Shown here: positions 9,885-64,000 of the stretch, one piece after another | How positions within the stretch are numbered: the stretch's first letter is position 1 | How the letters are laid out: each line of letters begins with the position of its first letter | Assembly (NCBI GenBank): GCA_033648345.1 | Contig: GCA_033648345.1_4121.1 | DNA length: 64,000 nucleotides | Source of the DNA: a phage | Strand: one strand, 5' to 3' | Translations under genes and position numbers: made by a program | Notes under the pieces: model-generated | The model's input: the letters and a program-made list of their open reading frames with translations, nothing else | What the model was told of the DNA's origin: nothing | Databases searched by the model: none

Positions 9885-12173
9885 ATGAATCTTACCCAAT
9901 TATTCAAAAAAAGCGACGAACTGGCAACTTCTCTGGGTCATACCTTCTTGACTATTGACCATCTAAGTGCTACAGTACTGACAATCGATAGCATCAAAGC
10001 AGTATTTGAAGATATGAACATCGATGCAGACAACCTACACGGTCGTTTGATTGCATATCTGAAGAATACAACATTCCCACATGCACCTAAAAGTGCTGAT
10101 GGTGATGAAGCGAACCGCACATCACTTCTCGTGAACCGTGTAGTTCAGGAACTTTCTAAGAAATCAGTAATTGAGCAACTTAAACGTGATGATTTCTCAA
10201 TTGATGCTTATTTTGTACTGTTTGAGTGTTTGTCCTTCCCAAATACTGCACTAGAAGCAGCATTGCGTGAAGAGGGTATCACTTGTACTGAAGCAGCACG
10301 AACTCTACAGAAGCACGTAGAAGCAATCGACAACGGAATCAACCTTCAAAGCATTAGTGATGAGCCAACTGGGGAGAAAAAAGTGGCACAACAACAACCA
10401 TCGTCCAAACAAAAAGGTTTAGAAGATTACACCACTAACCTAACCGCACTTGCAAAAGAAGGTAAACTTGACCCAATGATTGGTCGCCAGAAAGAGCTTT
10501 CTGCACTGATTGAAACTCTGGCCCGTAAGACTAAGAAGAATGCTATCCTGACTGGTGAAGCTGGTGTTGGTAAAACTCAAATCATTGATGGTCTAGCACA
10601 GGCAATCGCTGATGGTGAAGTACCAGAGCATCTTAAAGATGTTGAAATTCTGTCTCTGAACGTAGGTGCACTGACTGCTGGTACTAAGTACCGTGGTGAG
10701 TTCGAAGAACGTATCGATAACCTACTAAAAGAACTGAAGAAACGTGAAAACACTATTGTGTTCATCGATGAAATCCATATTATGGTTGGTGCTGGTTCAG
10801 CAAGCAACGGTTCTATGGATATGAGCAACATGCTCAAACCTGCACTATCTCGTGGTGAGATTCGTGTAATCGGTGCAACAACTTACGATGAATATCGTAA
10901 AAACATCGAAAAAGATAGTGCACTAACTCGCCGTTTCATGAAAATTGATGTAGTTGAGCCAACAATTGATGAAACCCGTGCGATTGTGAATGGTTTGAAA
11001 TCTACTTATGAAACTTTCCATAACGTAGAGTTCAGTACTGAAGCAATGGATGCAGTTATTACACTAAGTGATAAGTTCCTGAAGAACAAACACTTCCCTG
11101 ACAAAGCAATCGACCTAATGGATGCGGCAGCAGCGAAAGTACGTTCTCGTGAAACTGATGATAACATCATCACTGTTGCACTGATTCAAGAAGTTGTTGC
11201 AGGTATCGCAAACCTAGATATTAATGTGGTTGCTTGCACTGAAAGTGAACGTATGCGTAATCTACCAGATGCACTCCGTTCTCGTGTATACGGTCAAGAA
11301 GAAGCAGTACAGAAACTGGTTGATAACGTGATGGTAGCTCGTGCTGGTCTGCGTGATAAATCAAGTGTTCAAGGTGCATTCATGTTTGTTGGTCCATCTG
11401 GTACTGGTAAAACTGAAATTACCAAAGCACTGGCTGATGCAACTGGTTCTGAACTGATTCGTTTCGATATGTCCGAGTTTTCACAGGAACATACTGTTGC
11501 TAAACTGATTGGTTCACCTCCAGGCTATGTTGGTCACGATTCTGGTAACGGTCTGCTACTCGACAAGATTGAGCAGTTCCCGAATGCAGTACTGTTGCTT
11601 GATGAAATCGAAAAAGCTGATCGTAAAGTACTACTAACCTTCCTACAGGTTCTGGACGAAGGACGTTTGACTGGTTCACAAGGTAAAACTGTTTACTTCA
11701 ATAACGTAACTGTTATTATGACGACTAACCTTGGTGCAGCAGATTCAACCAAGCGTAGTATTGGGATGAGCGGTAGTGATACAGCACAAGATAAAGCTAT
11801 TAAAGCATTCTTGCCACCTGAATTCATCAACCGTATCGATAGTATTGTGACATTCAAAGACCTAAGCAGCGAAGCGATTGACAGCATCATTGATAAGTTC
11901 ATGGGTAGTCTGAATGAACAAATCAAAGACCGCAAAGTTAAAGTTTCCCTGACTAAAGCGGCACGTGAGTGGTTGGCAACAAATGGTGTTAAAGTTGGGA
12001 TGGGTGCACGTCCAATGAAACGCACTATTGAGCAAAACATCCGTGTCCCACTAGCTAAAGAGATGTTGTGTGGTTCTCTGGTTAATGGTGGTAACGTAAC
12101 GTTTGATGTGATTGATGGTAAATTGGCTATCAAACCTAAACGAACTAAAGCAGTAGAAAAAGTTATTGCGTAA
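9885..12173 (+). CDS. clpA: ClpA-type ATP-dependent Clp protease ATP-binding subunit (N-domain plus two AAA+ modules)
   Basis: Near-colinear with E. coli ClpA from memory: two Walker A motifs (GEAGVGKTQ, GPSGTGKTE), GARPMKR sensor, candidate ClpP-docking tripeptide IGM; track start GTG 9861 replaced by ATG 9885 with AGGAGA RBS. Confidence 0.85.
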   Translation: MNLTQLFKKSDELATSLGHTFLTIDHLSATVLTIDSIKAVFEDMNIDADNLHGRLIAYLKNTTFPHAPKSADGDEANRTSLLVNRVVQELSKKSVIEQLKRDDFSIDAYFVLFECLSFPNTALEAALREEGITCTEAARTLQKHVEAIDNGINLQSISDEPTGEKKVAQQQPSSKQKGLEDYTTNLTALAKEGKLDPMIGRQKELSALIETLARKTKKNAILTGEAGVGKTQIIDGLAQAIADGEVPEHLKDVEILSLNVGALTAGTKYRGEFEERIDNLLKELKKRENTIVFIDEIHIMVGAGSASNGSMDMSNMLKPALSRGEIRVIGATTYDEYRKNIEKDSALTRRFMKIDVVEPTIDETRAIVNGLKSTYETFHNVEFSTEAMDAVITLSDKFLKNKHFPDKAIDLMDAAAAKVRSRETDDNIITVALIQEVVAGIANLDINVVACTESERMRNLPDALRSRVYGQEEAVQKLVDNVMVARAGLRDKSSVQGAFMFVGPSGTGKTEITKALADATGSELIRFDMSEFSQEHTVAKLIGSPPGYVGHDSGNGLLLDKIEQFPNAVLLLDEIEKADRKVLLTFLQVLDEGRLTGSQGKTVYFNNVTVIMTTNLGAADSTKRSIGMSGSDTAQDKAIKAFLPPEFINRIDSIVTFKDLSSEAIDSIIDKFMGSLNEQIKDRKVKVSLTKAAREWLATNGVKVGMGARPMKRTIEQNIRVPLAKEMLCGSLVNGGNVTFDVIDGKLAIKPKRTKAVEKVIA

Positions 12174-26233: not shown

Positions 26234-26722
26234 TTATACGGATTCGACGATGCGAGCCATCTTCTCCGCTCTGGATGTGGTTTGTTTGTACCACGAACTA
26301 TCACGCATTTCTTTACCAGCAGTTTTATAATCACCACGACCGAGAGCAGCCATCGCTTTTTTGAAATTTAAAACTTTTGATTTACCCATTTGGAACACCA
26401 TAAACCACAATACACGCTGAACCTGTACTGGAGCAGTCATTCCAAATTGATCATAGATTGATTTTGCGTCATTGTAAGCGGTCTGAGCATCTTTTATAAG
26501 GAGAGCATCAGCTTCTGCTTCAGTGAGTCCATTTTTGAAACTTTCACCCTTAAGTACAAGGTGACCGTAACCAATGGTATCAAGACCTAGACTGTCTTTA
26601 TATACCCAAAACTTATCATTTTTAAAATAACCAAGTTTTTTCTGATACGCAATAGTACCTTCAAATTCTTTAATTTCTTTAAAAAATTGTTCGTCGGTAT
26701 TTTTGATTTCCCATTTACTCAT
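26234..26722 (-). CDS. T4-type lysozyme (GH24 endolysin)
   Basis: 162 aa; catalytic Glu (KEFEG), Asp (YKDSLG), Thr (DTIGYGHL) and VFQMG as in T4 lysozyme; GAGGAAA RBS. Confidence 0.8.
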   Translation of the reverse strand: MSKWEIKNTDEQFFKEIKEFEGTIAYQKKLGYFKNDKFWVYKDSLGLDTIGYGHLVLKGESFKNGLTEAEADALLIKDAQTAYNDAKSIYDQFGMTAPVQVQRVLWFMVFQMGKSKVLNFKKAMAALGRGDYKTAGKEMRDSSWYKQTTSRAEKMARIVESV

Positions 26723-26759
26723 AAAGATTTCCTCATTATTATTTATAGTACTGAAATAT

Positions 26760-29423
26760 TTATTGACATGCCTCTAATCTACGTGCCATTAATTCAGCAC
26801 GGCGTGTAGTTTGACGATACCAAGCTGAATTTCGAATTTGAGCAGCAGCTTGCTTGTAGTTACCTTTAGCCATTTCAGATAGCATTGACTTAAATTTCAT
26901 TACACCACCTTTACCCATCTGGAATACCATTTGACATAGAACTTGTTGTGCCATGTAAGGTGTTTTCATCTTATAAGAAGCGTAAATGGATTTTGCGTCA
27001 TATATAGCCTTACTACTATCACGCACCAACATATCATTGGCTTCCTGTTCGGTAATCCCACCAGAGAAGTTTTCACCACCAACAATCAAGTGACCGTAAC
27101 CAATAGTTGGGAATCCACGACTATCCAAATATCTCCAAAATTTGCCATTACGGTAATATCCTTTAGCTTGTTGATACGCCATTGTTCCTTCATATTCTTT
27201 CAATTCAGAAATAAATTGTGAATCACCCGGAACAACTTTCCAATCAATTGCAGTCTTATCAACATTACCCACATTGTATGATTCTTGTGCAGTAGGTACT
27301 GGAGTACCACCTGAACGTTGTGTTCTTCTACGACGAGGGACATGACGAGAACCACGTTGAGAATACCCAGTACCGATAGTTTTAATTTTAGTTGTTACAA
27401 CTAATTCATCACTATCAACAGAAGGTTGAACAACAGCTTTCGGTGCTGCTTGGTTCGTTGCTTGTCCTGCAATTAATGTTTTATTTCCCGCTTCAGAACC
27501 TGTACCAGTCTGGGATGCATAGAATAATCCAGGGTCAACTGAACCACTAAATCCTAGTACGTTGGCAGAGGTAACTCTTATTTCAAATTGAATAACACCA
27601 TTAGCTTTACCGATAACTTGACCTTTTTGAACAACGTCTTTATTGAGCAAATCTGATTGAATATTATAAAATACAGATTTATATCCAGACTTATGTTGAA
27701 CCAATAAAGCACCATTAGTGATAACAACTACACCGCCATCTGGAGCTACAACATCACCCTTGCACTGTATTTCCCAGCCACTTCTATCAGCTTTACCACC
27801 ACCACTAGTCGGGACACCTTTCCCCCAATAACCGTATTGGCGAATGGTTCCACTACACGGCATGAACATATGAAGACCTTCATATGTAATGCTATAACCA
27901 GTCATACCAGGATCAGAAGTCATTAAATCTTGTGTTTGAACTTGTTCTGTTTCTGTTGTATAATTTACATATTGAATTGCTTCAGTGTCCTGTACTGGAG
28001 CTAAAGTTGGAGCTACATCATTAGCAGGTTCAGGTTGAACTGGGGATTCACTATTCCCACTACCACCACCTTGACGTGGAGGTTCAACAGTACTGCCGTG
28101 ATTCTCAGCATCAACCCAAGCCGATATATCATGTATATGATCATTCAAGCCAGCAGATGGGGTGCGGAAGTTTGGTGCATTAAATTCAGCAGTACCACTA
28201 TTACCACCACTGTTAACAGTAAGAGTTTGACCACCACCACTAATAATAGCTGATGAAGAACCAATGAGATTAGCACTGGTAGCAGCAGAGATTGACGCAT
28301 TAGAACCAGCAGTTATATCAGTACTGCTACCACTTTGCATACGTAATGAAGCTGCTGTTACTAAACGTAAATCTGCTCCAGCGTTAATAACAACCTGACC
28401 ACCAACTTTAGCATCCAATGCACCAACCAAATCTAGTTTAGTGTTTGCACCAACACGAGCATTGAAGTCTGCTCCACTTTCAATATTATATGAGCGTCCA
28501 GCCACCATGTTAATATCTTGACCTGCACGAATGTTAATATTCTTATCACAGTGCATTTCAATATCACCTTCACCAGTGAATTTAATACGTGCAGTACCAT
28601 CACGGTTAATTAAAAGAACATCACCAGAGGCTTCAGATAACAACAACTGTGCACCACTACGTGTTTTAATTACAACGCCTTCATTTTTACGAGAACCAAC
28701 ACGAGTATCGTTCACTGGGTTATTGAATTGGGTATCCTGATAACCATCTGGATCTTGATCCCATGTAGGTGCTGTTAATTCTTCTTCTGTGTAACCATCA
28801 TCAATAATAAAACTGTTACCACGAGGTGAGGAAAGACCATAAACAGTACTGGTGGTCTGGCGAGTACTGCTACGGTTAGCAACACCCGCTTCCTCATCAT
28901 AAAGTAAGTTTTGTTTTTTCAGACCTGCAATAATTGGAACGTTTGCATATTTGTCTTGAGTACTGGTAGAAATTGTATTACGGTCATAATCAGTTACGGG
29001 TAATGGCATATCAGTACCAGCATAGTTGCTTATTTCAGTAGCCATCCCAGGAACCATCGTATTCATACGTTGGTCATAAACACAACCAATCCAATACGCT
29101 TGGAATGTTCTTGCTTGTGCAAATATAACAACAACAGTACATCCGACATCAGGTGGAACCGCCCAAAAACCATATCCCTTTGGATATTGACCATAAGCAT
29201 CAGCACTTGGTATCCCTGGAGTTTTGCCAGCGAATGGAGACATGTATGATGCTTCAATCCATGACTCTTTTGAATTTTTATCACTTTGTGAACCTTGAAT
29301 CCACACTTTTAGCTTACCGGATTTAGTTGGGTCACGGTTATCCATCACGGTTGCTAGTTGTGGATACGAAGGGTCAAAACGACCCAACTGTTGTTGGGCA
29401 TATTTCTTACTTGTATCTGCCAT
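26760..29423 (-). CDS. Baseplate central spike protein with beta-helix, degenerate M23-like domain and C-terminal GH24 lysozyme domain
   Basis: 887 aa; beta-helical repeat region; M23-like fold lacking HxxxD/HxH zinc ligands (VIQFEIRV); C-terminal 150 aa paralogous to the adjacent free lysozyme with conserved E/D/T. Confidence 0.7.
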   Translation of the reverse strand: MADTSKKYAQQQLGRFDPSYPQLATVMDNRDPTKSGKLKVWIQGSQSDKNSKESWIEASYMSPFAGKTPGIPSADAYGQYPKGYGFWAVPPDVGCTVVVIFAQARTFQAYWIGCVYDQRMNTMVPGMATEISNYAGTDMPLPVTDYDRNTISTSTQDKYANVPIIAGLKKQNLLYDEEAGVANRSSTRQTTSTVYGLSSPRGNSFIIDDGYTEEELTAPTWDQDPDGYQDTQFNNPVNDTRVGSRKNEGVVIKTRSGAQLLLSEASGDVLLINRDGTARIKFTGEGDIEMHCDKNINIRAGQDINMVAGRSYNIESGADFNARVGANTKLDLVGALDAKVGGQVVINAGADLRLVTAASLRMQSGSSTDITAGSNASISAATSANLIGSSSAIISGGGQTLTVNSGGNSGTAEFNAPNFRTPSAGLNDHIHDISAWVDAENHGSTVEPPRQGGGSGNSESPVQPEPANDVAPTLAPVQDTEAIQYVNYTTETEQVQTQDLMTSDPGMTGYSITYEGLHMFMPCSGTIRQYGYWGKGVPTSGGGKADRSGWEIQCKGDVVAPDGGVVVITNGALLVQHKSGYKSVFYNIQSDLLNKDVVQKGQVIGKANGVIQFEIRVTSANVLGFSGSVDPGLFYASQTGTGSEAGNKTLIAGQATNQAAPKAVVQPSVDSDELVVTTKIKTIGTGYSQRGSRHVPRRRRTQRSGGTPVPTAQESYNVGNVDKTAIDWKVVPGDSQFISELKEYEGTMAYQQAKGYYRNGKFWRYLDSRGFPTIGYGHLIVGGENFSGGITEQEANDMLVRDSSKAIYDAKSIYASYKMKTPYMAQQVLCQMVFQMGKGGVMKFKSMLSEMAKGNYKQAAAQIRNSAWYRQTTRRAELMARRLEACQ

Positions 29424-31703: not shown

Positions 31704-32018
31704 TTAACCTATGTTACGAGTACCGTTCAAATAGTTTTGTACTCGTTGATTTGAGGGAACACGAATTGTGATACCACTATTAAAATTGTATATTGGGTCT
31801 TCTCCTAATATATCAGGATTCAATAGGGCAAATACATAATACAGACGTTCATTACCATACATTTCGTATGCTAAACGCCAAGGTTGATGCTCATACTTCA
31901 ATGGAATTACATAGAAGTCGTCAGTATCAGCAGGAACCATATCACGTGGTAAATTGTAACCAAGATACCACGTTTGTTTAACCTTTGCATAAGGAGAGTA
32001 TTGACTATAATTGGACAT
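31704..32018 (-). CDS. Hypothetical protein
   Basis: 104-aa ORF; GGAGGA RBS; start overlaps upstream stop. Confidence 0.45.
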   Translation of the reverse strand: MSNYSQYSPYAKVKQTWYLGYNLPRDMVPADTDDFYVIPLKYEHQPWRLAYEMYGNERLYYVFALLNPDILGEDPIYNFNSGITIRVPSNQRVQNYLNGTRNIG

Positions 32019-32749
32019 TAGATAAATCCTCCATTACGTAATAGTTCACCACGCTTAAATGCATTTAGGTTGAACTTTTTAGTCATGTAATCAGATGTTG
32101 GTTGTTCTTCAAGTTGAAGCATTACAGATATTTTCTGTGGAACCCATACCTCATCTTGTGGATTCATATATCCAGTACTTCTAAGCTGTTCGAAGAATTT
32201 ACGACTATCCATATCAGATAAATTAAAAGTACTATCACTACTATTCAATGGAACCTGAATGTAAGAAACATCATTTGGATATGTAAAATTATATGCTTTC
32301 AAAATAACAGGAATATCATTATATGTATAACGACCATACCCACTTAATAGTAAAATTGGCGGTGGTGCACCTGCAATTGCTAGTTCGGGATTATTAGCAG
32401 ATGCTGCTTGACGACCAAAGTCCATTAAGGACACGGAACGAATAAAATGAACACAAGCCAATGCATACATTGCTTCAGCAGCAGTGTTCGCATAAAACTC
32501 ACCTTGAATAGTGAAAACAGTGTTTGTTGTATTCTTGTAGTTGTTGTAGATACTGTTAGTATGTATAGGGGACTGTGTTTCATATTGAACCGACCTTTGT
32601 TCAGTTACAGTTGGGGTTACAGTCCAAACCAAACCATTTGTTGGACGCAGAAACGATAGCAATGTTGGCTCTGAACTGTTGCCAAAATCACCATACACAT
32701 AGTTAGCACCTGCGGTTTTAGGTCTTAATCGGATTCTACGATCAATCAT
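32018..32749 (-). CDS. Hypothetical protein
   Basis: Track ORF starts at TTG 32839; ATG at 32749 has GGAGAA RBS, leaving a divergent promoter region at 32750-32880. Confidence 0.5.
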   Translation of the reverse strand: MIDRRIRLRPKTAGANYVYGDFGNSSEPTLLSFLRPTNGLVWTVTPTVTEQRSVQYETQSPIHTNSIYNNYKNTTNTVFTIQGEFYANTAAEAMYALACVHFIRSVSLMDFGRQAASANNPELAIAGAPPPILLLSGYGRYTYNDIPVILKAYNFTYPNDVSYIQVPLNSSDSTFNLSDMDSRKFFEQLRSTGYMNPQDEVWVPQKISVMLQLEEQPTSDYMTKKFNLNAFKRGELLRNGGFI

Positions 32750-32794
32750 CTTTTTGATTCTCCATAAGAAGGGAACATTTGATGTATTTATACG

Positions 32795-32823
32795 TGGGAC
32801 AAAGACGTTTTTGGTGCTATAAT
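32795..32823 (+). promoter_or_regulatory. Early/middle-type promoter upstream of the gp55-like gene
   Basis: TGGGAC, 17-nt spacer ending TGC, TATAAT (32818-32823); member of a recurring family. Confidence 0.45.
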
Positions 32824-32880
32824 AACATTGATGGTACAAGGAATGTACCTATTGGATTTAAAACATGGAGAGTTGAAATA

Positions 32881-33720
32881 ATGACAAATAGGCCGAAGCG
32901 TAAAAAGTATCTTAACAATGCTGATTTACTTCGTGAGATACAAAAAAGTAAAATCTCATATTGCTGGTTACTTGATAAGTGCTACAGTATGTACGATTAT
33001 ATCGTTTTTGATGAATCCGAAATCACAGCAGAACTTTTAGATAAAGCTAAAGCAGCACGTATTAAACGTCTCAACAATGAAATGCTTGATGCAATTCGTG
33101 AAAAAGAAGGTATGAGTGCGAAGAAAGCGAAGGAATACGCAGATGAGCACAATTTAGTACTGACTGATGTACCTATCGATGAGGTGGTTATTCGTGTAAT
33201 TACCGATGAACATATCCCAGCAGATACAAGAGTTAATTTTGAACCATTCAAACATTACATTGTAGATGAAGAAGGTATTCTGTACGAAGTCGTTCGTTCT
33301 CACTGGAAAGGTGATCTTGAAGACGGAGAATTCAGTACTGTTCATGGTAAAATCACTAATGAACTAGGTAAAATGTTCATTAAACTGGCAGAGGAAATCT
33401 CACACAAATCCAACTATAGAAACTATACATATTTGGATGAAATGATGGGTGATGCCAGAATACAATTAGTTAAAAACGCACTTCTCTTTAAAGAGAGTAT
33501 TCTTTACAAAAAAGATAAACCAGCAGTACAGTTGAATCCTTTCTCTTACTATACTTCGTTCGTTAACAATAGTTTCCGTTCTATTCTTAATAGTGAGAAA
33601 AATGTTCGTAACATCCGAGACGATTTACTTGAGATGCATGGTTTTACACCATCACACACTCGTCAAATCGAAATTGAAATGAACATGATTGAAAGGAAAA
33701 ACGAAGATGGCTCTATTTGA
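32881..33720 (+). CDS. Late-transcription sigma factor, T4 gp55-like
   Basis: KYLNNADLLREI, YTYLDEMMGDARIQLVKNALLFKE and NPFSYYTSFVNNSFRSILNSEKNV match T4 gp55 blocks from memory; about 100 aa longer than T4 gp55; GGAGAG RBS. Confidence 0.7.
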   Translation: MTNRPKRKKYLNNADLLREIQKSKISYCWLLDKCYSMYDYIVFDESEITAELLDKAKAARIKRLNNEMLDAIREKEGMSAKKAKEYADEHNLVLTDVPIDEVVIRVITDEHIPADTRVNFEPFKHYIVDEEGILYEVVRSHWKGDLEDGEFSTVHGKITNELGKMFIKLAEEISHKSNYRNYTYLDEMMGDARIQLVKNALLFKESILYKKDKPAVQLNPFSYYTSFVNNSFRSILNSEKNVRNIRDDLLEMHGFTPSHTRQIEIEMNMIERKNEDGSI

Positions 33721-43456: not shown

Positions 43457-43684
43457 ATGTTAAAGGACATCTTTGAATCTAGCAGTGATTCTTTATACGA
43501 CCCTGAAGATGATCAGAACGTATATAAAATTACTGATTCCAGAAAACCAAAACTAACATTACAAGTACTTAATAATTTAAGAAAGTACCGTGAATTTAAA
43601 GCTAATGAAGAACAACGACGCAAAAATGTTGTCGCTGTTGTTTATGCAGCAGCACCATCCGGTGATGGTTCAGGATTAATGTAA
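43457..43684 (+). CDS. Small prohead core protein candidate (gp67/68-like by position)
   Basis: 75-aa ORF with AAAGGAGA RBS between portal and core/protease genes. Confidence 0.4.
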   Translation: MLKDIFESSSDSLYDPEDDQNVYKITDSRKPKLTLQVLNNLRKYREFKANEEQRRKNVVAVVYAAAPSGDGSGLM

Positions 43685-43720
43685 ACAAAAATCGCACTTT
43701 TTAAAGCTTTTAAAAATGGC

Positions 43721-43751
43721 GAAATTTTTCAGTACTAAATAATATCATACT
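43721..43751 (+). promoter_or_regulatory. Late-promoter-like element (TAAATAATAT box)
   Basis: 31-nt block GAAATTTTTCAGTACTAAATAATATCATACT, nearly identical to the block upstream of the capsid gene. Confidence 0.45.
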
Positions 43752-43784
43752 TTATATGAATGTAATATATCTATGGAGGATATA

Positions 43785-44615
43785 ATGGCGAATTTAAAAC
43801 TACTACAAGAAGCAATTGAAGCGTTTGCAAACGGCGAACAGGATGTTGCTGATAAAAAAATGCGTAAGTACTTTGTTGAGCAAGCTCAAGAAATCAATAA
43901 AGAACTAGAAGAAAGCATGGACGAAGAAGAATGTGAAGTTGAAGTCAAAGACGAAGAAAAACTTGACGAAGACTTTGATGTTCAACCAGACGCTGGTCTA
44001 AATGCTGAAATCGAATACACCCTAGGTGAAGAAGATGAAAGTGCCGAAGAAGAAGTTGAATTCTCTGCTGATGCTGATGGCGAAGAAGTTGACGCTGAAG
44101 CAGAAGTTGGTGCAGAAGTTCCTTCCGAAGACCAATGGGAATCTATTCAAGATGCTTTCCGTGGCCTACAACAAATGTTTGACGAAATCGGCGGTGATGA
44201 AGTTGACCTAGGTTCTGAAGACGAAGTTGAAGTTGGTGCGGAAGAAGAATTCGGTGCTGATGGTGAAGAATCTGAAGACGAATTTGCTGATGTACAATTC
44301 GGTGATGAGAAAGTTGGTGAGTCTTTCAAACTTAAGCAAGTTGCTGCGGTTGATAAGAAAGAAAAAGCTGGCGTTAATACCAAGTCTCCAGTTGCTCCAG
44401 AAGCTAAATCTCCAGTTCAAGGTGTTGCTCCAGTGAAATTCGCTAAAGCTTCCGAAAAACAAGTAGATTATGATTTTGAAAACGAAGATGCTATGTCTCA
44501 CACTGATGAAGACCTAGGTAAAAATGCTCGTGGCGAAATGAAAGATGTTGCGAAGCCAAAAAATACCGCTTCTAAATCTCGTTCTCCACTACCAAAATCA
44601 CAACCAAAAATCTAA
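43785..44615 (+). CDS. Highly acidic prohead core / scaffold-like protein
   Basis: Asp/Glu-rich 276 aa; ATG 43785 with GGAGGA RBS preferred over track start 43773. Confidence 0.5.
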   Translation: MANLKLLQEAIEAFANGEQDVADKKMRKYFVEQAQEINKELEESMDEEECEVEVKDEEKLDEDFDVQPDAGLNAEIEYTLGEEDESAEEEVEFSADADGEEVDAEAEVGAEVPSEDQWESIQDAFRGLQQMFDEIGGDEVDLGSEDEVEVGAEEEFGADGEESEDEFADVQFGDEKVGESFKLKQVAAVDKKEKAGVNTKSPVAPEAKSPVQGVAPVKFAKASEKQVDYDFENEDAMSHTDEDLGKNARGEMKDVAKPKNTASKSRSPLPKSQPKI

Positions 44616-44646
44616 CACTAAATAAAGAAAAGGAAAGGAGATCATT

Positions 44647-45267
44647 ATGAGTATGATTCGTGAATGGTCTTCATTCAATGATTCTAAAGTTGTTTTGGAA
44701 CATCGTGATAATGGACTTGGTGGGCGTGATTGCTATCTTCGTGGTATTGCTATTCAAGCCGATCAAAGAAATTTAAATGAGAGAATTTACCCTTTAGCCG
44801 AAATTACTAAAGCTGTTAATAATATGGCTCAACGTTTGGCTAAAGGTGAAAGTATTCTAGTTGAATGTGACCACCCCGAAACACTAACAATTAACCTTGA
44901 CCGTGTAGCAGCAATGATTACTAAGGTCTGGATGGAAGGTGCTAACGGCATGGCAGAAATCAAACTACTTGATACTGCTCATGGTACTAATATTCGTAAA
45001 ATGCTAGAAGCTGGTGTGAAACTTGGTGTAAGTTCTCGTGGTTCCGGTAACGTGGATTACAATGGAATAGTTTCTGATTTTGAAATTATCACAATTGATA
45101 TTGTTGCTCAACCTAGTGCTCCAGAGGCATACCCTACTGCGGTTTTTGAATCTCTGATGAGTAAGTACGGATCACCTTGTAATAGTCCTAAAAAAATCAC
45201 AGAATCTAAAACAGTAAATAATGTAGATTCTGAAATTTACGATTTTTTCAAGAAATTAAAAGGTTAA
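44647..45267 (+). CDS. Prohead protease candidate (T4 gp21-like by position)
   Basis: 206 aa; conserved His (VECDHPE) and Ser (VSSRGSG) candidates; strong AAAGGAAAGGAG RBS. Confidence 0.5.
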   Translation: MSMIREWSSFNDSKVVLEHRDNGLGGRDCYLRGIAIQADQRNLNERIYPLAEITKAVNNMAQRLAKGESILVECDHPETLTINLDRVAAMITKVWMEGANGMAEIKLLDTAHGTNIRKMLEAGVKLGVSSRGSGNVDYNGIVSDFEIITIDIVAQPSAPEAYPTAVFESLMSKYGSPCNSPKKITESKTVNNVDSEIYDFFKKLKG

Positions 45268-45333
45268 CATTTTAAAAATATAAATATTTGTATGTTGAAG
45301 TACAGATATTTCAGTACTTAAAGGAGAGAACGA

Positions 45334-46449
45334 ATGTCTAAATTAGAAAAGCTTCTAAAAGAATCATCTCTTTCTGATGAGGCAAAACAGCTAATTCAGG
45401 AAGCATGGAATGAAGAAAAAAACACACTTGCCGCAGAAATGCGTGAAGAAATGAAAGGCCGCTACAAACAAGATTTGTCTGAGCTAACCGAAGGTCTAAA
45501 TACTATGGTTACTCAAGTTATCGCTGAAGAAATGGGTGCAGTATATGAAGAGAAAAAACGTCTTGTAGAAGATCGTGTAACTCTCCGCAAAACCCTAAGT
45601 AATTTCTCTGCGTTTTCTAACTCTGTTTTGGCTGAAGAAGTTAAACAAATGCGTAAAGAACGTAAGCATCTTCAAGAATGCATGGGTAAATTCGTTAATT
45701 TCTCTAACGGTATCCTAGCAGAAGAGCTAAAAGAATTCCACATCGAGAAACGTCAACTAGTTGAAACTCGCGTTAAACTACTAGCTGAAGGCTCCCGTCA
45801 AATTGCTGAAGCACGTAACAACTTCATCAAACGTACATCTGAAAGTGCTGCTAAATATATTGCAGAAACTACTCAGAAAAACCTATACGCTTTGAAAGAA
45901 GATCTTGTTGAAGCAAAACAAAATATGTTTGGTCGTAAAATCTTTGAAGCATTTGCTCAAGAGTTTAATGTCAAACAATTTAATGAGAATTCACTACTAC
46001 GTTCCCTAACTGAATCAATCAAGTCTAAAGAAGACGAAATTGCTCAAGTTAAGAAAGAACTAAATGAAACTGTAAGTGAAGTTAAAGCTGCTAAAACCAA
46101 ACTACGTATTATGGAAGATTCACAAGCTCGTAATGCGATTATGTCTGAACTAGTTAAGCCACTAACTACACAACAGAAACAAATTATGGAATCCCTTCTA
46201 GCTACTTCTCCTACAGAAAAGCTTAAAGACGATTTCAGCAAGTACCATAAGTCAGTACTTAACGGTACTAAAGTAAATGAATCTGCTACCACTCGTCAAG
46301 CAGTTCAGTCTTCCGCTAAGAGAACTCTTGCAGAAGGTAAAGTAATCACTGGCAACCGTCAGGCTATTGTTGAAAGCGAAGAAATGACCGCTGACGATAT
46401 GGCATTCCTAAAAGAACTCGATGTTCTTTCTGGTATCAATAAAAAATAA
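45334..46449 (+). CDS. Scaffold protein candidate (T4 gp22-like by position)
   Basis: 371 aa, charged coiled-coil-like composition; AAAGGAGAG RBS; directly upstream of the capsid gene. Confidence 0.5.
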   Translation: MSKLEKLLKESSLSDEAKQLIQEAWNEEKNTLAAEMREEMKGRYKQDLSELTEGLNTMVTQVIAEEMGAVYEEKKRLVEDRVTLRKTLSNFSAFSNSVLAEEVKQMRKERKHLQECMGKFVNFSNGILAEELKEFHIEKRQLVETRVKLLAEGSRQIAEARNNFIKRTSESAAKYIAETTQKNLYALKEDLVEAKQNMFGRKIFEAFAQEFNVKQFNENSLLRSLTESIKSKEDEIAQVKKELNETVSEVKAAKTKLRIMEDSQARNAIMSELVKPLTTQQKQIMESLLATSPTEKLKDDFSKYHKSVLNGTKVNESATTRQAVQSSAKRTLAEGKVITGNRQAIVESEEMTADDMAFLKELDVLSGINKK

Positions 46450-46472
46450 ACATTTTAAAGCATTTTAATAAT

Positions 46473-46505
46473 CAAATTTTTCAGTTCTATAAATAATATC
46501 ATACT
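46473..46505 (+). promoter_or_regulatory. Late promoter with exact T4-type TATAAATA box
   Basis: TATAAATA at 46488-46495, 45 nt upstream of the capsid ATG, inside a block shared with 43721-43751. Confidence 0.5.
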
Positions 46506-46539
46506 GAAAAACGAATATAACATCTTTAAGGAGATAATA

Positions 46540-47715
46540 ATGTCACAACTACTAAATGAATCCAAATGGGTAGCAGTTAAAGAGAAACTAGTTGAAGGTC
46601 TACAAGGTACTCGTAAGTCCGTAATGGAAACCGTACTTGATAACCATCGTAAACTAATGCTAAACGAATCTGCTACTTCTGGTGCAACCACCGCTGGTAA
46701 CATCGCTACTCTAAACAAAGTGATTCTACCAATTATGCGTCGTGTTATGCCAACCGTAATCGCTAACGAAATCATCGGTGTTCAGCCAATGACTGGCCCA
46801 GTTGGTCAGATCCACACCCTACGTGTTCAATATGCTGACAACGCTCCTGGTGTTATCGCTGGTGAAGAAATGCTTTCTCCATACAAAATCGCTAAGTCTT
46901 ATACTGGTGACCTAAACGCAGACAACAGCAACCCACAAGCTGCTCCTACTAGCCAACTAGAAGGTACTATGGGTCGTCGCGTTAACATCCGTATTCTACG
47001 TGAAACTGTTGAAGCGAAATCTCGTCGTCTATCTGCACGTTGGACTGTTGAATCTGCACAAGATGCACAATCCCAACATGGTATCGACGTTGAAGCTGAA
47101 CTAATGGCTGCAATCGCTCAAGAAGTTACCGTTGAAATCGACCAAGAGCTACTAAGCCGTCTACGTGCACTACCTGGTGCTGCTGCTGTAACTTATGACC
47201 AATCTAAAGTTACTGGTGTTGCGACCTTCGTTGGTGACGAGCACGCTGCTCTAGCTACCCTAATCAACCGTCAAGCGAACGAAGTTGCTCGTCGTACCAA
47301 ACGTGGTGCTGCGAACTGGGCTGTTGTTTCTCCAACCGCTCTAACCATTCTACAGTCTGCAACTACTTCTAGTTTTGCACGTACTACTGAAGGTACTTTC
47401 GAAGCTCCAACTAACGTTAAATTTGTTGGTACTCTAAACAGCACCATGCGTATCTTCGTTGATACCTATGCAAGTGATGTTGAAGATATCCTAATTGGTT
47501 ACAAAGGTAACGCTGAAACTGATGCTGGTGTGTTCTATTGCCCATACATCCCACTAATGGCTTCCGGTACTGTAATGGACCCTAACACTGGAGAACTCGT
47601 TACAACTTTCTTAACCAGATACGGGTATGTTCAGTTGACCGATAGCACCAGTTCACTAGGTAACGCTGCTGACTACTACAGTAAAATCGCTATCAAAAAC
47701 GTTACTTTCATGTAA
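46540..47715 (+). CDS. Major capsid protein (T4 gp23 family)
   Basis: IMRRVMPTVIANEIIGVQPMTGPVGQ, EAKSRRLSARWTVESAQD and GYKGNAETDAGVFYCPYIPL match gp23 blocks from memory; 391 aa. Confidence 0.85.
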   Translation: MSQLLNESKWVAVKEKLVEGLQGTRKSVMETVLDNHRKLMLNESATSGATTAGNIATLNKVILPIMRRVMPTVIANEIIGVQPMTGPVGQIHTLRVQYADNAPGVIAGEEMLSPYKIAKSYTGDLNADNSNPQAAPTSQLEGTMGRRVNIRILRETVEAKSRRLSARWTVESAQDAQSQHGIDVEAELMAAIAQEVTVEIDQELLSRLRALPGAAAVTYDQSKVTGVATFVGDEHAALATLINRQANEVARRTKRGAANWAVVSPTALTILQSATTSSFARTTEGTFEAPTNVKFVGTLNSTMRIFVDTYASDVEDILIGYKGNAETDAGVFYCPYIPLMASGTVMDPNTGELVTTFLTRYGYVQLTDSTSSLGNAADYYSKIAIKNVTFM

Positions 47716-47738
47716 TAATAAAGAATTTAAATATACTA

Positions 47739-47768
47739 GGGACTCTTCGGAGTCCCTTTTCTTTTTTC
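47739..47768 (+). terminator. Intrinsic terminator after the capsid gene (UUCG tetraloop)
   Basis: GGGACUC-UUCG-GAGUCCC followed by a U-rich run. Confidence 0.65.
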
Positions 47769-47779
47769 AGAAAAAAAGC

Positions 47780-47808
47780 TTGACAAGTAGATTTTAATTA
47801 TATATAAT
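47780..47808 (+). promoter_or_regulatory. Consensus sigma70 promoter
   Basis: TTGACA (47780-47785), 17-nt spacer, TATAAT (47803-47808). Confidence 0.6.
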
Positions 47809-47843
47809 TACCACATACCAAAAATCACAAAGAGACAAATAAA

Positions 47844-48950
47844 ATGCCAAAAGTAAGTATCGACAAAGAAAAATTCATTGAAGAGATGAACAACAAGTAT
47901 GGAGCATATGGTGAATTTGATTTCAGCACTTTAGTATTCAAAGCCAGTAAGACAACAGTTAAATGTAATAAATGCGGAAAAGAAAATACTAAACCTGCAC
48001 TACGTCACATTTCATGTACATGTTCTTCATGTTATTCAAACATGTCACAGCGTTCGAACAACGAAAAATTTATCAGCACGGTAGAAACTAAATTTGGAAA
48101 AGATAAATTCAAATTTGATAAACTAAATTACATTAACGCTATAACAAAAGTAACCATACTCTGCACAGACGAAGAACATAACGATTACTTTGAAATTACA
48201 CCAAACAAATTTCTTACTGGTAAGGGATGTCCTATATGTAATAAAAATGAAGCATACAGTACTGAAGAATTCGTAGAAAAAGTAAAAGAAAATTATGGTG
48301 ATTCATTAGATTTAACTAACACAGTATATGTAAATCAAAAAACTAAAGTAACTGTGTATTGTAAAGCGGGTAACCATGAATGGACAGTTGATCCGAAAAC
48401 TTTACTTGTTGGTAAGACTGGTTGTGGTACATGCTCCGGTAAAGGTGGTCGCAGTACTGAACGTTTCATTGAACTGGTATCACCTATCCATAACCATAAG
48501 TATGATTATAGTTTGGTTGAATATACTATAAGCGAGAATTATGTTGATATTGTATGTCCAACTCATGGTGTTTTCTCCCAACAACCAAAAGCACATATGG
48601 CTGGTAAAGGATGCCCATCATGTGGTGAATATGGATATCAGCCATCAAAACCTGGATATTTCTATGTTCAAAAACTAACTAATAAAGATAAGACAGTGTA
48701 CAAGTATGGAATCACTGGTGATATGAAACGCCGTGTAAATGAGCAAAGTCGTCATTCTGGTTTTGAACACACAGTACTGATAGAACGTTACTTTGAAGAT
48801 GGAAATCAACCATTACTGTTGGAAAAGTTCATAAAGAAATACATTGAAAGTGGTGTTGTAAGTACTGAAGAGTTGCCATCAGGATTTACTGAAACTTTTG
48901 ATGCTAAGTATCTTGAAAGTGTTTTAGAAATTGTAAATACTTTTAAGTAA
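47844..48950 (+). CDS. Protein with tandem zinc-ribbon repeats plus C-terminal T5orf172 (GIY-YIG superfamily) domain
   Basis: Three to four ~60-aa repeats each ending GKGCPxC / GCGTC with paired Cys; C-terminal GYFYVQK...YKYGITGDMKRRVNE block matches the T5orf172 pattern. Confidence 0.6.
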   Translation: MPKVSIDKEKFIEEMNNKYGAYGEFDFSTLVFKASKTTVKCNKCGKENTKPALRHISCTCSSCYSNMSQRSNNEKFISTVETKFGKDKFKFDKLNYINAITKVTILCTDEEHNDYFEITPNKFLTGKGCPICNKNEAYSTEEFVEKVKENYGDSLDLTNTVYVNQKTKVTVYCKAGNHEWTVDPKTLLVGKTGCGTCSGKGGRSTERFIELVSPIHNHKYDYSLVEYTISENYVDIVCPTHGVFSQQPKAHMAGKGCPSCGEYGYQPSKPGYFYVQKLTNKDKTVYKYGITGDMKRRVNEQSRHSGFEHTVLIERYFEDGNQPLLLEKFIKKYIESGVVSTEELPSGFTETFDAKYLESVLEIVNTFK

Positions 48951-51911: not shown

Positions 51912-54900
51912 ATGTATATCGATGCTTATATGGAACGTAAACGTACTGGTGATATTTTGCACGTAGCAGAACGTAAAAACGGTAAACGTATTCTACGTCA
52001 GTTGGACCCAGTATATGAATATTATGTTGAATCTCCTACTGGTGAACACAAAACAATTTATGGAACCAACGCAAAGCATTTGGAGTTTGAAACTCAATCA
52101 CAGATGAATAAAAGCGTTGAGCAACATAAAAATGAAGGTCTACGTATTTTTGAAAGTGATTGCAACATTACCTTCAAAACGTTGGCTAGAGAATACATGG
52201 GTAAAGGTTCGCCGGATTTGAACGTAGCATTTTTCGATATCGAAACCGACTTCCATAAGAAGTTTGGTTATGCTCCACCATCAGATCCATTCAACCGTGT
52301 AACTGCAATTTCTCTATATCAATCATGGACTGGTAAGGATTATGTACTTACTTTGCCACCAACTGATATGGAAATGTACGAAGCACAAGATATTGTTCGA
52401 CAGTTAAACGAAGAAACTAACGACCCTAACAGTACTGTCATCCTTTATACGGATGAGAAAGAAATGTTTATGGAGTTCTTTAGTCTAATCGATGACTCTG
52501 ATGTAATTTCAGGTTGGAACAGTGAATTCTTTGATATTCCATATATGGTAAACCGTACCAAGAAAATCTTCAACGAAGCAACTACTGCTCGTTGGTGTTT
52601 GTGGAATAAAAAACCAAATGCTCGTGAAGCTGATAACTTTGGTAAAACTGTAGTAACATATGATCTTATTGGTCGCGTACACTTAGACTATCTTGCTCTT
52701 TATAAGAAACATGCTGGTCAAGTTGAACAGTCGTACAAACTAGATTATATTGCTGAAAAAGTAACTAAAGAAAACAAAGTATCCTATGAAGGTTCATTGG
52801 ATAAACTATACCGTGAAGATTACATTACATTCTTGCGTTATTCTAAGCAGGATAGTATTCTTCTAAAGAAAATTGATGCTAAATGTGACTTTATCAACCT
52901 GCACAACCGTCTTGCTCATAAAGAATGTGTACTAATTAGTACTACAATGGGTTCGGTTGCACTAATCGACACTGCTATCATCAACCTTGCTCACAGTCGC
53001 GGTGAAGTTGTTTTTAACAAAGCACCGAAGGATGATTTTGAGTTAGATCCAGAGATGGAGTACTATGGTGAAGAAGGTGATGAAGAAGATGAGAAAATCA
53101 GTGCAAAAGCTGCTGGTGCATGGGTTCAAGATCCAGTTCTTGGCCTTGTTAGCGATTTGGGATGTACAGACTTTAACTCATTGTATCCAACTGTACTACG
53201 TACACTTGGCATGAGTACTGAATGTATTCTTGGACAACTTCGTCAAGACTACACTGATGCATATCTTGCTGCTAAAGTACAAGAGCAAAAAGCTAAATCC
53301 AAATCTAAAGCGTTTGAACCTGATTGGACCGCTGCATGGCATGGTTTATTTGCTGCTGTAGAATTTACAATGGTTCATGAAAAATCTGACAAAACTTTGA
53401 TTGTTGATTTAGAAGATGGTAGTTCGTTCAATGCAACTGGTAAAGAATTGTATGATATTATCTTTGCTGAAGACAGTACTATTGTACTAAGTGCTAACGG
53501 AACACTTTTTGATAAGTCTAAGTATGGTGTAATTCCAGATATTCTTACTCAATGGTATTCTGAGCGTAAAGCACAACAAAAAATGGTAATCGACTACAAA
53601 CACATGTACAGTGATGGGTGGGAATTCAATGGTTCTGAGAAGGTTGAACCTTTGCTATCTAACTACACAAGTGGTACAATGTTCCGTACAAACTTACATG
53701 ACAATGATCCTGTTTACCTATTACGTATTGCTATTGGTAAAGGTCAATGGGAAGAAGTTGCAAAACTCATTGTGGAAAATGGTTTAGTACTGAAAGATGG
53801 TCGTATTTTCTGTGCAACGGAAGATAAGAATTACTTCAAACAGCAAAGTGCATTCTGGAAACAGAACCAGCAAATTCGTAAGATTCTTCTAAACAGTCTA
53901 TATGGTGCACTATTGAACAAAGGTTCACGTTTCTTTGATAAGCGTTTAGGTCAGTCCGTTACCTTAACTGGTCGTTCTATGACTAAACATATGGCAAGCC
54001 GTATCAATGAAATCACTACTGGTGTTTATAATCACCAAGGTGGCTCTGTAATTTACGGTGATACTGACTCCGTTTACTTCAGTGTAACTCATTACCTGAA
54101 AGAACAAGGTATTCCATATAATCTTTCGAAAGAAGAAATCGTTGACATGTATATCAAAATCGGTGATGAAGTTGGTGAATCATTCCCTTCATTCATGAAC
54201 GAAATGTTCAATACTGGTATTGAGAAAGGTAAGATTGTTGGTGCAGACCTAGAGATGGTCGGTTCCCGTGGTCTATTCCTGAAGAAAAAGCGTTATGCAA
54301 TTCTCAAGTACTGGGAAGATGGTTTCCGTAAAGATGTTGATGGAAAGCCTGGTGAAATTAAAGCGATGGGTCTTGAAATTAAACGTTCAGATACGCCAAA
54401 ATACATCCAGAACTTCCTAGAAGAGACTCTAATTGCATTGCTGGTGGGTGAGTCTGAAGCTCAACTTAAACAGCGTGTACGTGACTTTAAAGAGGTATTT
54501 AAAGACATGCCTGTACACGAAAAGGGTTCACCGAAAACTGTTAAGAACTATACCAACTTAGAAGCAGAATATGAAGTTTCTGGTAAATGTAAAGTTGGTC
54601 ACGTATTAGCAGGTATTCAATGGAACCGTCTACGTGAAGTATATGATGACAAAACTGTACCTGAAGTAACTGACGGTACAAAAGTAATTGTATGTAACTT
54701 AAAAGATAACCCGATGGGTATCAAAGCAGTAGGTTATCCAATTGACTGTGTGGAATATCTACCTGAATGGTTCTTAGAACTACCATTTGATACAGAGAAA
54801 ATGGAAGAAATAGTTCTAACTAAAAAATTAGAAAACATTTTTGGTATTCTGGATATGGATATTGGTATTCATGAGAAAAGTACAGCAGCCGTTAATAACG

Positions 54901-58974: not shown

Positions 58975-64000
<5,026 letters not shown>

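Follow-up and report, generated by a model that had tools for sequence, protein, structure and literature searches.

Two head genes of a jumbo phage, encoding an acidic core protein and the major capsid protein, are preceded by a similar block of about 55 nucleotides (nt), and we asked whether this block is one extended late promoter, a possibility that an earlier note on this DNA had raised beside that of an additional leader element, or a succession of separate elements. Both genes lie in a 64,000-nt stretch (GenBank assembly GCA_033648345.1, contig GCA_033648345.1_4121.1), hereafter called the window, which comes from a 121Q/PBECO4/RaK2-type jumbo myovirus; its head-gene segment shares 99.7% identity with Escherichia phage BF17 and ∼90% with 121Q. 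The local gene order is portal, a 75-amino-acid (aa) gene, acidic virion protein (the core gene), prohead protease, scaffold protein, and major capsid protein. For genome-wide counts and for the ranking of promoter pairs, we used a whole genome of ∼362 kb assembled from BF17 and the window. We conclude, with a probability of about three in four, that both blocks are late promoters of two abundant head genes and that the block is a composite, not a single element.

Late boxes upstream of the core and capsid genes

The regions 43680-43790 and 46440-46550 aligned with 82% column identity over 119 columns, which confirmed the shared block described in the earlier note. The likeness runs through everything that separates the preceding stop codon from the ATG and so exceeds the 55 nt that had been claimed, and a 32-nt core pattern of the block had no chance match in 100 shuffles. 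When all NTAAATA promoter regions of the assembled genome were compared two by two (2553 pairs), the core/capsid pair ranked 25th; it ranked 2nd when a tandem paralog array was left out, with a score of 63 against a mean of 24.5 and a standard deviation of 4.7 (∼8 standard deviations). A blastn search likewise returned these two places only in each genome. Late promoters in general therefore do not carry the full 55-nt block. The array left out from the ranking is located at ∼339 to 358 kb of BF17, on the minus strand, and comprises ∼15 paralogous genes of ∼370 aa, some annotated as RCC1-like; its near-identical intergenic regions carry a hairpin with CCAGTACT, a T-run, and TTAAATA-TAG-TATAAT, and pairs of them outscore the core/capsid pair.

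The T4-type box that had been proposed for both sites was found in full at only one of them. The capsid copy contains an exact TATAAATA at 46488-46495 (plus strand, like all features below for which no strand is given), and within it the box of this phage family, ATAAATA, at 46489-46495 marks the predicted late promoter of the major capsid gene. The core copy has no T4 octamer: it is 2 nt shorter at the box, which is the variant CTAAATA (43735-43741), and its ACTAAATA matches the octamer at 6 of 8 positions. Both assignments draw on the orthologs as well as on the sequence itself. The boxes stand 43 nt (core) and 44 nt (capsid) upstream of the gene starts, on the coding strand and in intergenic DNA, and both continue into the A/T-rich ATATCATAC. 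The scaffold gene, which starts at 45334, likewise has an ATAAATA late box upstream (45280-45286), the ortholog of which is Porf_256 in the table published for phage CBB.

We then evaluated the distribution of the box. With 52 copies genome-wide where 269 are expected, ATAAATA is depleted ∼5-fold, and 35 of the 52 lie within 120 nt upstream of a start on the same strand. The 100-kb early region holds 6 copies where ∼88 are expected, and in the window ATAAATA stands upstream of ∼17 of the 48 genes. When the search was widened to the hexamer TAAATA, 26 of the 47 copies in the window fell in non-coding DNA, which makes up 7.7% of its length, and most of these lay 15 to 65 nt ahead of a same-strand start. 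ATAAATA is thus purged everywhere except ahead of structural genes and therefore behaves like a promoter. An enrichment of the T4 octamer by count was rejected (TATAAATA, 5 observed versus 7.5 expected), the signal being one of position and of ATAAATA avoidance elsewhere: all five exact TATAAATA copies fall within intergenic DNA or at its border, ahead of a gene on the same strand. Given this count, and since T is not favored immediately ahead of the box, we take the family consensus to be ATAAATA, with CTAAATA variants, instead of the T4 octamer assumed previously.

The late boxes also share a context. In a profile of 32 of them, T accounts for 47 to 59% of the bases at positions -13 to -5, and a peak of A (69%) lies 6 nt past the box, which is where CATAC has its A at the core and capsid sites alike. 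T-runs were found at 21 of 49 late boxes, with a strong hairpin preceding only 7 of the 21, so the T-run is a common but optional feature, explained in part by terminator tails. The notion of an extended late promoter is thereby retained in a reduced form, that of a T-rich tract and a downstream A belonging to the class, while the 55-nt block is unique to this pair.

We propose that host RNA polymerase, associated with the gp55-like sigma factor of the phage, would read ATAAATA as a -10-type box, would tolerate CTAAATA, and would need no -35 element. Transcription would start at the A of CATAC, 6 nt past the box (∼43747 and ∼46501), and would produce a ∼38-nt AT-rich leader that lacks structure and carries a strong Shine-Dalgarno sequence. 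We infer that the gp55-like sigma reads the box, that transcription is late, and where exactly it begins.

Parts of the block and competing explanations

From 5' to 3', the proposed composite would be made of the leaky terminator hairpin of the preceding gene (in the core copy), a T-run that is frequent yet optional in the promoter class, one copy of a genome-wide palindrome, CAGTACT (unaltered at the core site, decayed at the capsid site), and the box plus ATAT-CATAC, after which comes the leader. We aligned both intergenic regions from nine genomes covering five genera or groups (∼70% identity), and the same succession was kept in both regions of all nine: a T-run, 6 to 8 nt, (A/C)TAAATA(A), 3 to 4 nt, CATA(C/T), and, further on, GGAG and ATG. 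The box at the core site is ATAAATA in Munch, GAP32, CBB, pEa47, Yen9-04, and XbC2 and CTAAATA in 121Q and KP13-7, and at the capsid site ATAAATAA is invariant in the nine genomes. In more distant relatives, the Pseudomonas phage PA5oct and a Vibrio phage, a terminator and then TATAAATA precede the core gene. The prediction of late promoters upstream of both head genes thus holds for the group's box, which is in the right place and orientation and is kept across five genera, but it does not extend to the long block as a general element. CATAC, the putative start region, is located at 43746-43750 in the core copy (A at 43747) and at 46500-46504 in the capsid copy (A at 46501); at the core site it is present in 8/9 aligned genomes, with CATAT in KP13-7, so that CATA is common to all nine.

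The upstream half of the core copy looks like the end of the preceding transcription unit. A weak hairpin at 43692-43722, just after the 75-aa gene (stop codon at 43682-43684), was predicted by folding to have -7.9 kcal/mol (z, -1.5) and may act as a leaky terminator. The orthologous hairpins reach -19 kcal/mol in GAP32 (z, -5.9), -15.7 in Munch (z, -6.0), and -12.6 in KP13-7 (z, -3.6); their stems differ in sequence while pairing is retained, and the Munch annotation has a terminator at the orthologous position. The hairpin is followed by TTTTT (43725-43729), a T-run present in 9/9 genomes that may be the terminator tail, a T-rich upstream tract of the late promoter, or both. The combination typical of intrinsic terminators, a hairpin with conserved pairing and a T-run, was thus found in the upstream half of the core copy and not in the capsid copy. 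There, an A/T-rich segment (46453-46476) resembles the loop of the core-copy hairpin but lacks the stem, and no hairpin was predicted (-0.1 kcal/mol; z, +0.7). This segment is limited to Asteriusvirus and Alcyoneusvirus, the intergenic region being shorter in other genera. The T-run upstream of the capsid box (TTTTT, 46477-46481) nevertheless has at least four T's in 9/9 genomes, despite the absence of a hairpin.

Between the T-run and the box, the core copy carries CAGTACT (43730-43736), whose last two bases are also the first two of the late box, and the capsid copy carries CAGTTCT (46482-46488), apparently a decayed CAGTACT, since the KP13-7 ortholog has a perfect CAGTACTG there. The word varies between genera: CAGTACT is found at the core site in BF17 and 121Q only and is perfect at the capsid site in KP13-7 only, whereas BF17 and 121Q have CAGTTCT at the capsid site. 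The TTTCAGTACT segment of the block falls in a stretch that is variable between genera and is one instance of a genome-wide word without fixed spacing to late boxes. A separate TTTCAGTACT lies at 45309-45318, downstream of the late box of the scaffold gene.

Why, then, are the two copies so similar? The extended likeness may reflect history only, that is, duplication or gene conversion with no selection outside the box, the start region, and the Shine-Dalgarno sequence, an account that we regard as a serious candidate although we lean slightly against it. The additional upstream segment of the capsid copy, found just in Asteriusvirus and Alcyoneusvirus, looks like the core hairpin loop with its stem lost, and near-identity is seen in close relatives alone, other genera sharing only short class-level motifs between the two regions. 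However, genera without the extended similarity still keep the T-run and CATAC at both sites, so some of the flank is selected; moreover, this account concerns the flanks alone and does not compete with the promoter reading. For the composite promoter, we infer that the near-identity from the T-run to CATACT comes from shared ancestry or gene conversion in the Asteriusvirus/Alcyoneusvirus lineage and is held by selection for a strong late promoter, which fits because the near-identity is confined to close relatives.

The whole ∼55-nt block could instead be one unit, either a late promoter of extended form or a binding platform through which an additional factor would boost or time the two head genes, for example a dimeric protein reading TTCAGTACTGAA beside the box. 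The pair is an 8-standard-deviation outlier in similarity, the capsid-site T-run is kept without a hairpin, and a perfect CAGTACTG occupies the same place in the KP13-7 capsid promoter. Furthermore, CAGTACT lies directly against the box both here and at 26746 on the minus strand, in the geometry of the CAGTACTG-TATAAT of early promoters; this second case, AATATTTCAGTACTATAAATAATAA (26736-26760, minus strand, before gene 26234-26722 on the same strand), is the sole other one in the genome. Against a single unit, the CAGTACT stretch is the part of the block that varies across genera, being absent from both sites in GAP32, CBB, Erwinia, Yersinia, and XbC2, and in BF17 and 121Q the capsid copy has only the decayed form CAGTTCT. 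CAGTACT adjoins 1 of the 35 well-placed ATAAATA boxes, roughly what a density of 4.7 sites per kb of non-coding DNA would give, no offset of AGTACT relative to late boxes is enriched, and the terminator accounts for the upstream half of the core copy. We consider a single unit unlikely.

That the sites are ordinary sigma-70 promoters, read with a host sigma or a sigma-70-family sigma of the phage, seems very improbable to us. The phage does encode a second sigma factor (BF17 311016-311984), a member of the sigma-70 family that contains regions 2 and 3, and TAATAT within ATAAATAATAT matches the -10 hexamer at 4 of 6 positions. Yet a consensus scan found no -35/-10 pair on the plus strand upstream of either the core or the capsid gene, whereas it detected a perfect one at 47780-47808. 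The flank where a -35 element would lie varies between genera except for the T-run, and the class profile is only T-rich there. Early promoters of this genome also look different, with TTGCAA or TTGACA, a spacer of 16 to 17 nt, and TATAAT. Least probable of all is a structured RNA leader or small RNA: conservation does extend into the leader (ATATCT, a few bases, and GGAG), but neither site matched an Rfam family at E values up to 1, the upstream region of the capsid copy is unfolded, and the AT-rich leaders of the core and capsid genes differ outside short motifs.

Late transcription machinery and known relatives

The gp55-like gene mentioned in the earlier note is indeed inside the window, at 32782-33720. 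Its product matched phrog_12791 ("sigma factor for late transcription"; E, 1e-152) and phrog_234 ("late sigma transcription factor"; E, 1.5e-16) and was also recovered with T4 gp55 by BLASTP. Homologs of SbcD and SbcC follow the gene, which reproduces the order of T4 genes 55-47-46, and a homolog of the clamp loader gp44 is present (E, 2e-22); one of T4 gp62 was not detected. On the minus strand, a TATAAATA at 32782-32792, ahead of gene 32018-32749 (minus strand), overlaps the first codons of the longest gp55-like open reading frame, and in the annotation of 121Q the gp55-like gene starts ∼100 nt further downstream. Judging from the sequence, the true start probably lies downstream of 32782, in which case the divergent intergenic region would be larger than the map of open reading frames suggests.

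Several observations weigh against late promoters read by a gp55-like sigma. The resemblance to T4 gp55 is weak (25% identity over 121 aa; E, 3e-4), and a phmmer search of T4 gp55 against PDB gave no match. A homolog of the gp45 sliding clamp was found neither by phmmer nor by tblastn, nor did neighboring proteins have Pfam matches; gp33 was not searched. The authors of the CBB study likewise found neither gp33 nor gp45 (PMC5259590). Since no gp45-type clamp was detected, and both proteins went unfound in CBB, the activation mechanism of T4 may not apply, although sequence divergence could hide gp33 and gp45 from detection. At the sites themselves, the core copy has a C where the T4 box has an essentially invariant A, and its hairpin is weak in the window (z, -1.5). 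Finally, the capsid-site T-run, which has no hairpin, could be a real upstream promoter element, a case not separated from that of terminator tails.

The closest known system is the predicted late promoter of the RaK2-like phages CBB and GAP32, for which a late motif, ATAAATA, had been proposed earlier together with a gp55-like sigma (PMC5259590). It has the same 7-bp box, a location ahead of structural genes, and an A/T-rich downstream sequence; the predicted late promoters in Table S7 of the CBB study include CTAAATA variants and the scaffold-gene promoter Porf_256, but the list is without the core- and capsid-gene promoters studied here. The published CBB motif spans 14 nt and omits the T-tract, the A 6 nt past the box, the avoidance of the box, and the similarity specific to our pair (PMC5259590). 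The T4 late promoter, TATAAATA served by gp55, gp33, and the gp45 clamp, is alike in its -10-type A/T box, its lack of a -35 element, its placement upstream of head genes, its start ∼6 nt past the box (the position proposed here), its gp55 homolog, and the 55-47-46 gene order. It differs in that the consensus here is without the first T and C is tolerated at T4 position 2, and T4 gp55 has 185 aa while the gp55-like protein has ∼280 to 310 aa with an N-terminal extension.

Our analysis adds two well-defined predicted late promoters to a class known so far only as a motif prediction. It also sharpens the class through the ATAAATA core, the optional T-tract, the likely A start 6 nt downstream, and the strong genome-wide avoidance of the box, and it shows that a striking 55-nt repeat can be separated into terminator, promoter, and dispersed word.

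The core gene (43785-44615) matches phrog_15696 ("virion structural protein"; E, 6e-110), and its product is acidic, as had been noted, with 30% Asp plus Glu and an isoelectric point of 4.07. The start nearest the Shine-Dalgarno sequence GGAGGA (43775-43780) is the ATG at 43785, which corrects 43773; together the two occupy 43775-43787. The major capsid protein gene (46540-47715) matches Pfam Gp23 (E, 9.5e-90), and its Shine-Dalgarno site and ATG (46540) lie at 46529-46542. A strong terminator hairpin with a T-run (47738-47757) closes the head-gene transcription unit 3' of the capsid gene. Right after it, at 47780-47808 and before gene 47844-48950, lies the perfect sigma-70 consensus promoter picked up by the scan (TTGACA, 17 nt, TATAAT), an early-type promoter amid the head and tail gene region.

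The dispersed palindrome AGTACT

The late promoters of the core and capsid genes are largely ordinary, as their class had already been predicted; the new observation, and in our view the item worth following over the late promoters, is the excess of the palindrome that touches the box of the core copy. AGTACT occurs 988 times genome-wide where 124 copies are expected (8-fold), and CAGTACTG occurs 225 times where 3.9 are expected (58-fold). The window alone holds 136 AGTACT sites, a 6-fold excess (e.g., at 11034, 16815, 35699, 39936, and 60448), and a search for TTTCAGTACT with one mismatch returned 67 matches, on both strands and mostly intragenic, versus 8 expected. AGTACT is the sole strongly overrepresented 6-bp palindrome, the next one reaching 2.3-fold. 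Its preferred flanks are TTC-AGTACT-GAA, giving the palindrome (TT)CAGTACTG(AA).

The other palindromes make the excess stand out more, because they have been purged. In the BF17 genome, CCATGG, AGGCCT, AGCGCT, and CGATCG are absent (∼37 expected), as are CCCGGG, CGGCCG, CCGCGG, and CGCGCG (∼11 expected), and GATC, CTAG, and TCGA are ∼2-fold depleted. This loss looks like strong avoidance of restriction sites.

Coding sequence holds 86% of the AGTACT sites, in frames 0, 2, and 1 in numbers of 422, 268, and 156. The most overrepresented codon pairs in the window, GTA-CTG and AGT-ACT, are the same DNA word in two frames, and the excess arises partly via Ser-Thr written as AGT-ACT (75 versus 21.7 expected from the Ser-Thr count and codon usage) and Val-Leu written as GTA-CTG (21 versus 1.7). 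A coding artifact was rejected, as the excess exists in all three frames and in non-coding DNA and the codon pairs exceed expectation. A signal acting at the RNA level is also unlikely: with respect to transcription, the asymmetric flanks favor one strand only mildly (156 against 211). The lack of phasing with late boxes led us to reject AGTACT as a general late-promoter element.

The excess was found in all enterobacterial genera sampled but was absent in PA5oct, in a Vibrio relative, and in T4, which differs from this phage in that respect. Between genera, AGTACT positions are conserved no better than those of an average hexamer, while the density is kept across five genera, and the spacing is near random (coefficient of variation, 1.14), with no regularity seen. 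The density rises to 65 to 68 copies per 10 kb in the early region of the terminal repeat (BF17 1 to 20 kb, outside the window). In the sigma-70-type promoters of this early region, the word takes two fixed positions: it either overlaps the -35 element, as AGTAC-TTGCAA-N16-TATAAT (18 cases; AAAAAGTAC-TTGCAA-N16-TATAAT), or abuts the -10 element, as CAGTACTG-TATAAT (20 cases; TTGACA-N9-CAGTACTG-TATAAT).

We searched the phage literature for AGTACT or CAGTACTG and found nothing relevant. The same AGTACT center is present in the sequence bound by Escherichia coli SlmA, the 12-bp palindrome GTGAGTACTCAC (PMC3020112). SlmA requires G, T, a purine, A, and G at half-site positions 1 to 5 (PMC3020112), whereas the phage flanks favor T, T, and C at positions 1 to 3. 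At flank position 3, G makes up 9% against a background of 18%, and G..C is the rarest flank pair (5/986). On these preferences, and with no strict SlmA-type site in 362 kb, we rejected SlmA as the reader of AGTACT and do not count the phage word in the SlmA-site family.

We tentatively suggest, at somewhat less than even odds, that a clade-specific symmetric protein, encoded by the phage or the host, reads AGTACT in duplex DNA across the genome. Such a reader, if it exists, could mark or organize phage DNA or switch early promoters off, and the head-gene promoters could be influenced too. The excess thus points to a DNA-reading activity in a group of phages under development for therapy. A Dam-family N6-adenine methyltransferase of 173 aa (BF17 60839-61360; PF05869; E, 2e-31) or the second sigma factor could bear on AGTACT reading or on middle-gene transcription.

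Some places depart from the general density of the word. An AGTACT-free stretch of 2 kb (46254-48258), among the longest in the genome, covers the capsid gene and its surroundings, and the Ser-Thr pairs of this gene are AGC-ACC, unlike the AGT-ACT usual in the genome. Two arrays of very small overlapping open reading frames just inside the terminal repeat (BF17 20.5 to 25.7 kb and 28.4 to 36.7 kb) have no AGTACT over 5.3 kb and 8.3 kb, where the genome rate predicts ∼13 and ∼21 sites; these arrays may have been acquired recently or may be subject to a different selection. At 60549-60566, two AGTACT copies stand 12 nt apart (GGGGAGTACTTTAACGAGTACTTCCC) in the short gap before gene 60581-61267.

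We also looked at the E. coli Chi octamer, GCTGGTGG, which occurs 34 times genome-wide against 2.3 expected. A specific enrichment was rejected, since the count reflects mostly Gly/Ala codon composition: one-base variants average 11.6 copies, and GGTGGTGG reaches 33. In the window, Chi is found at 2424 and 41491 on the bottom strand and at 54440 and 60395 on the top strand, and the terminal repeat contains 8 top-strand copies.

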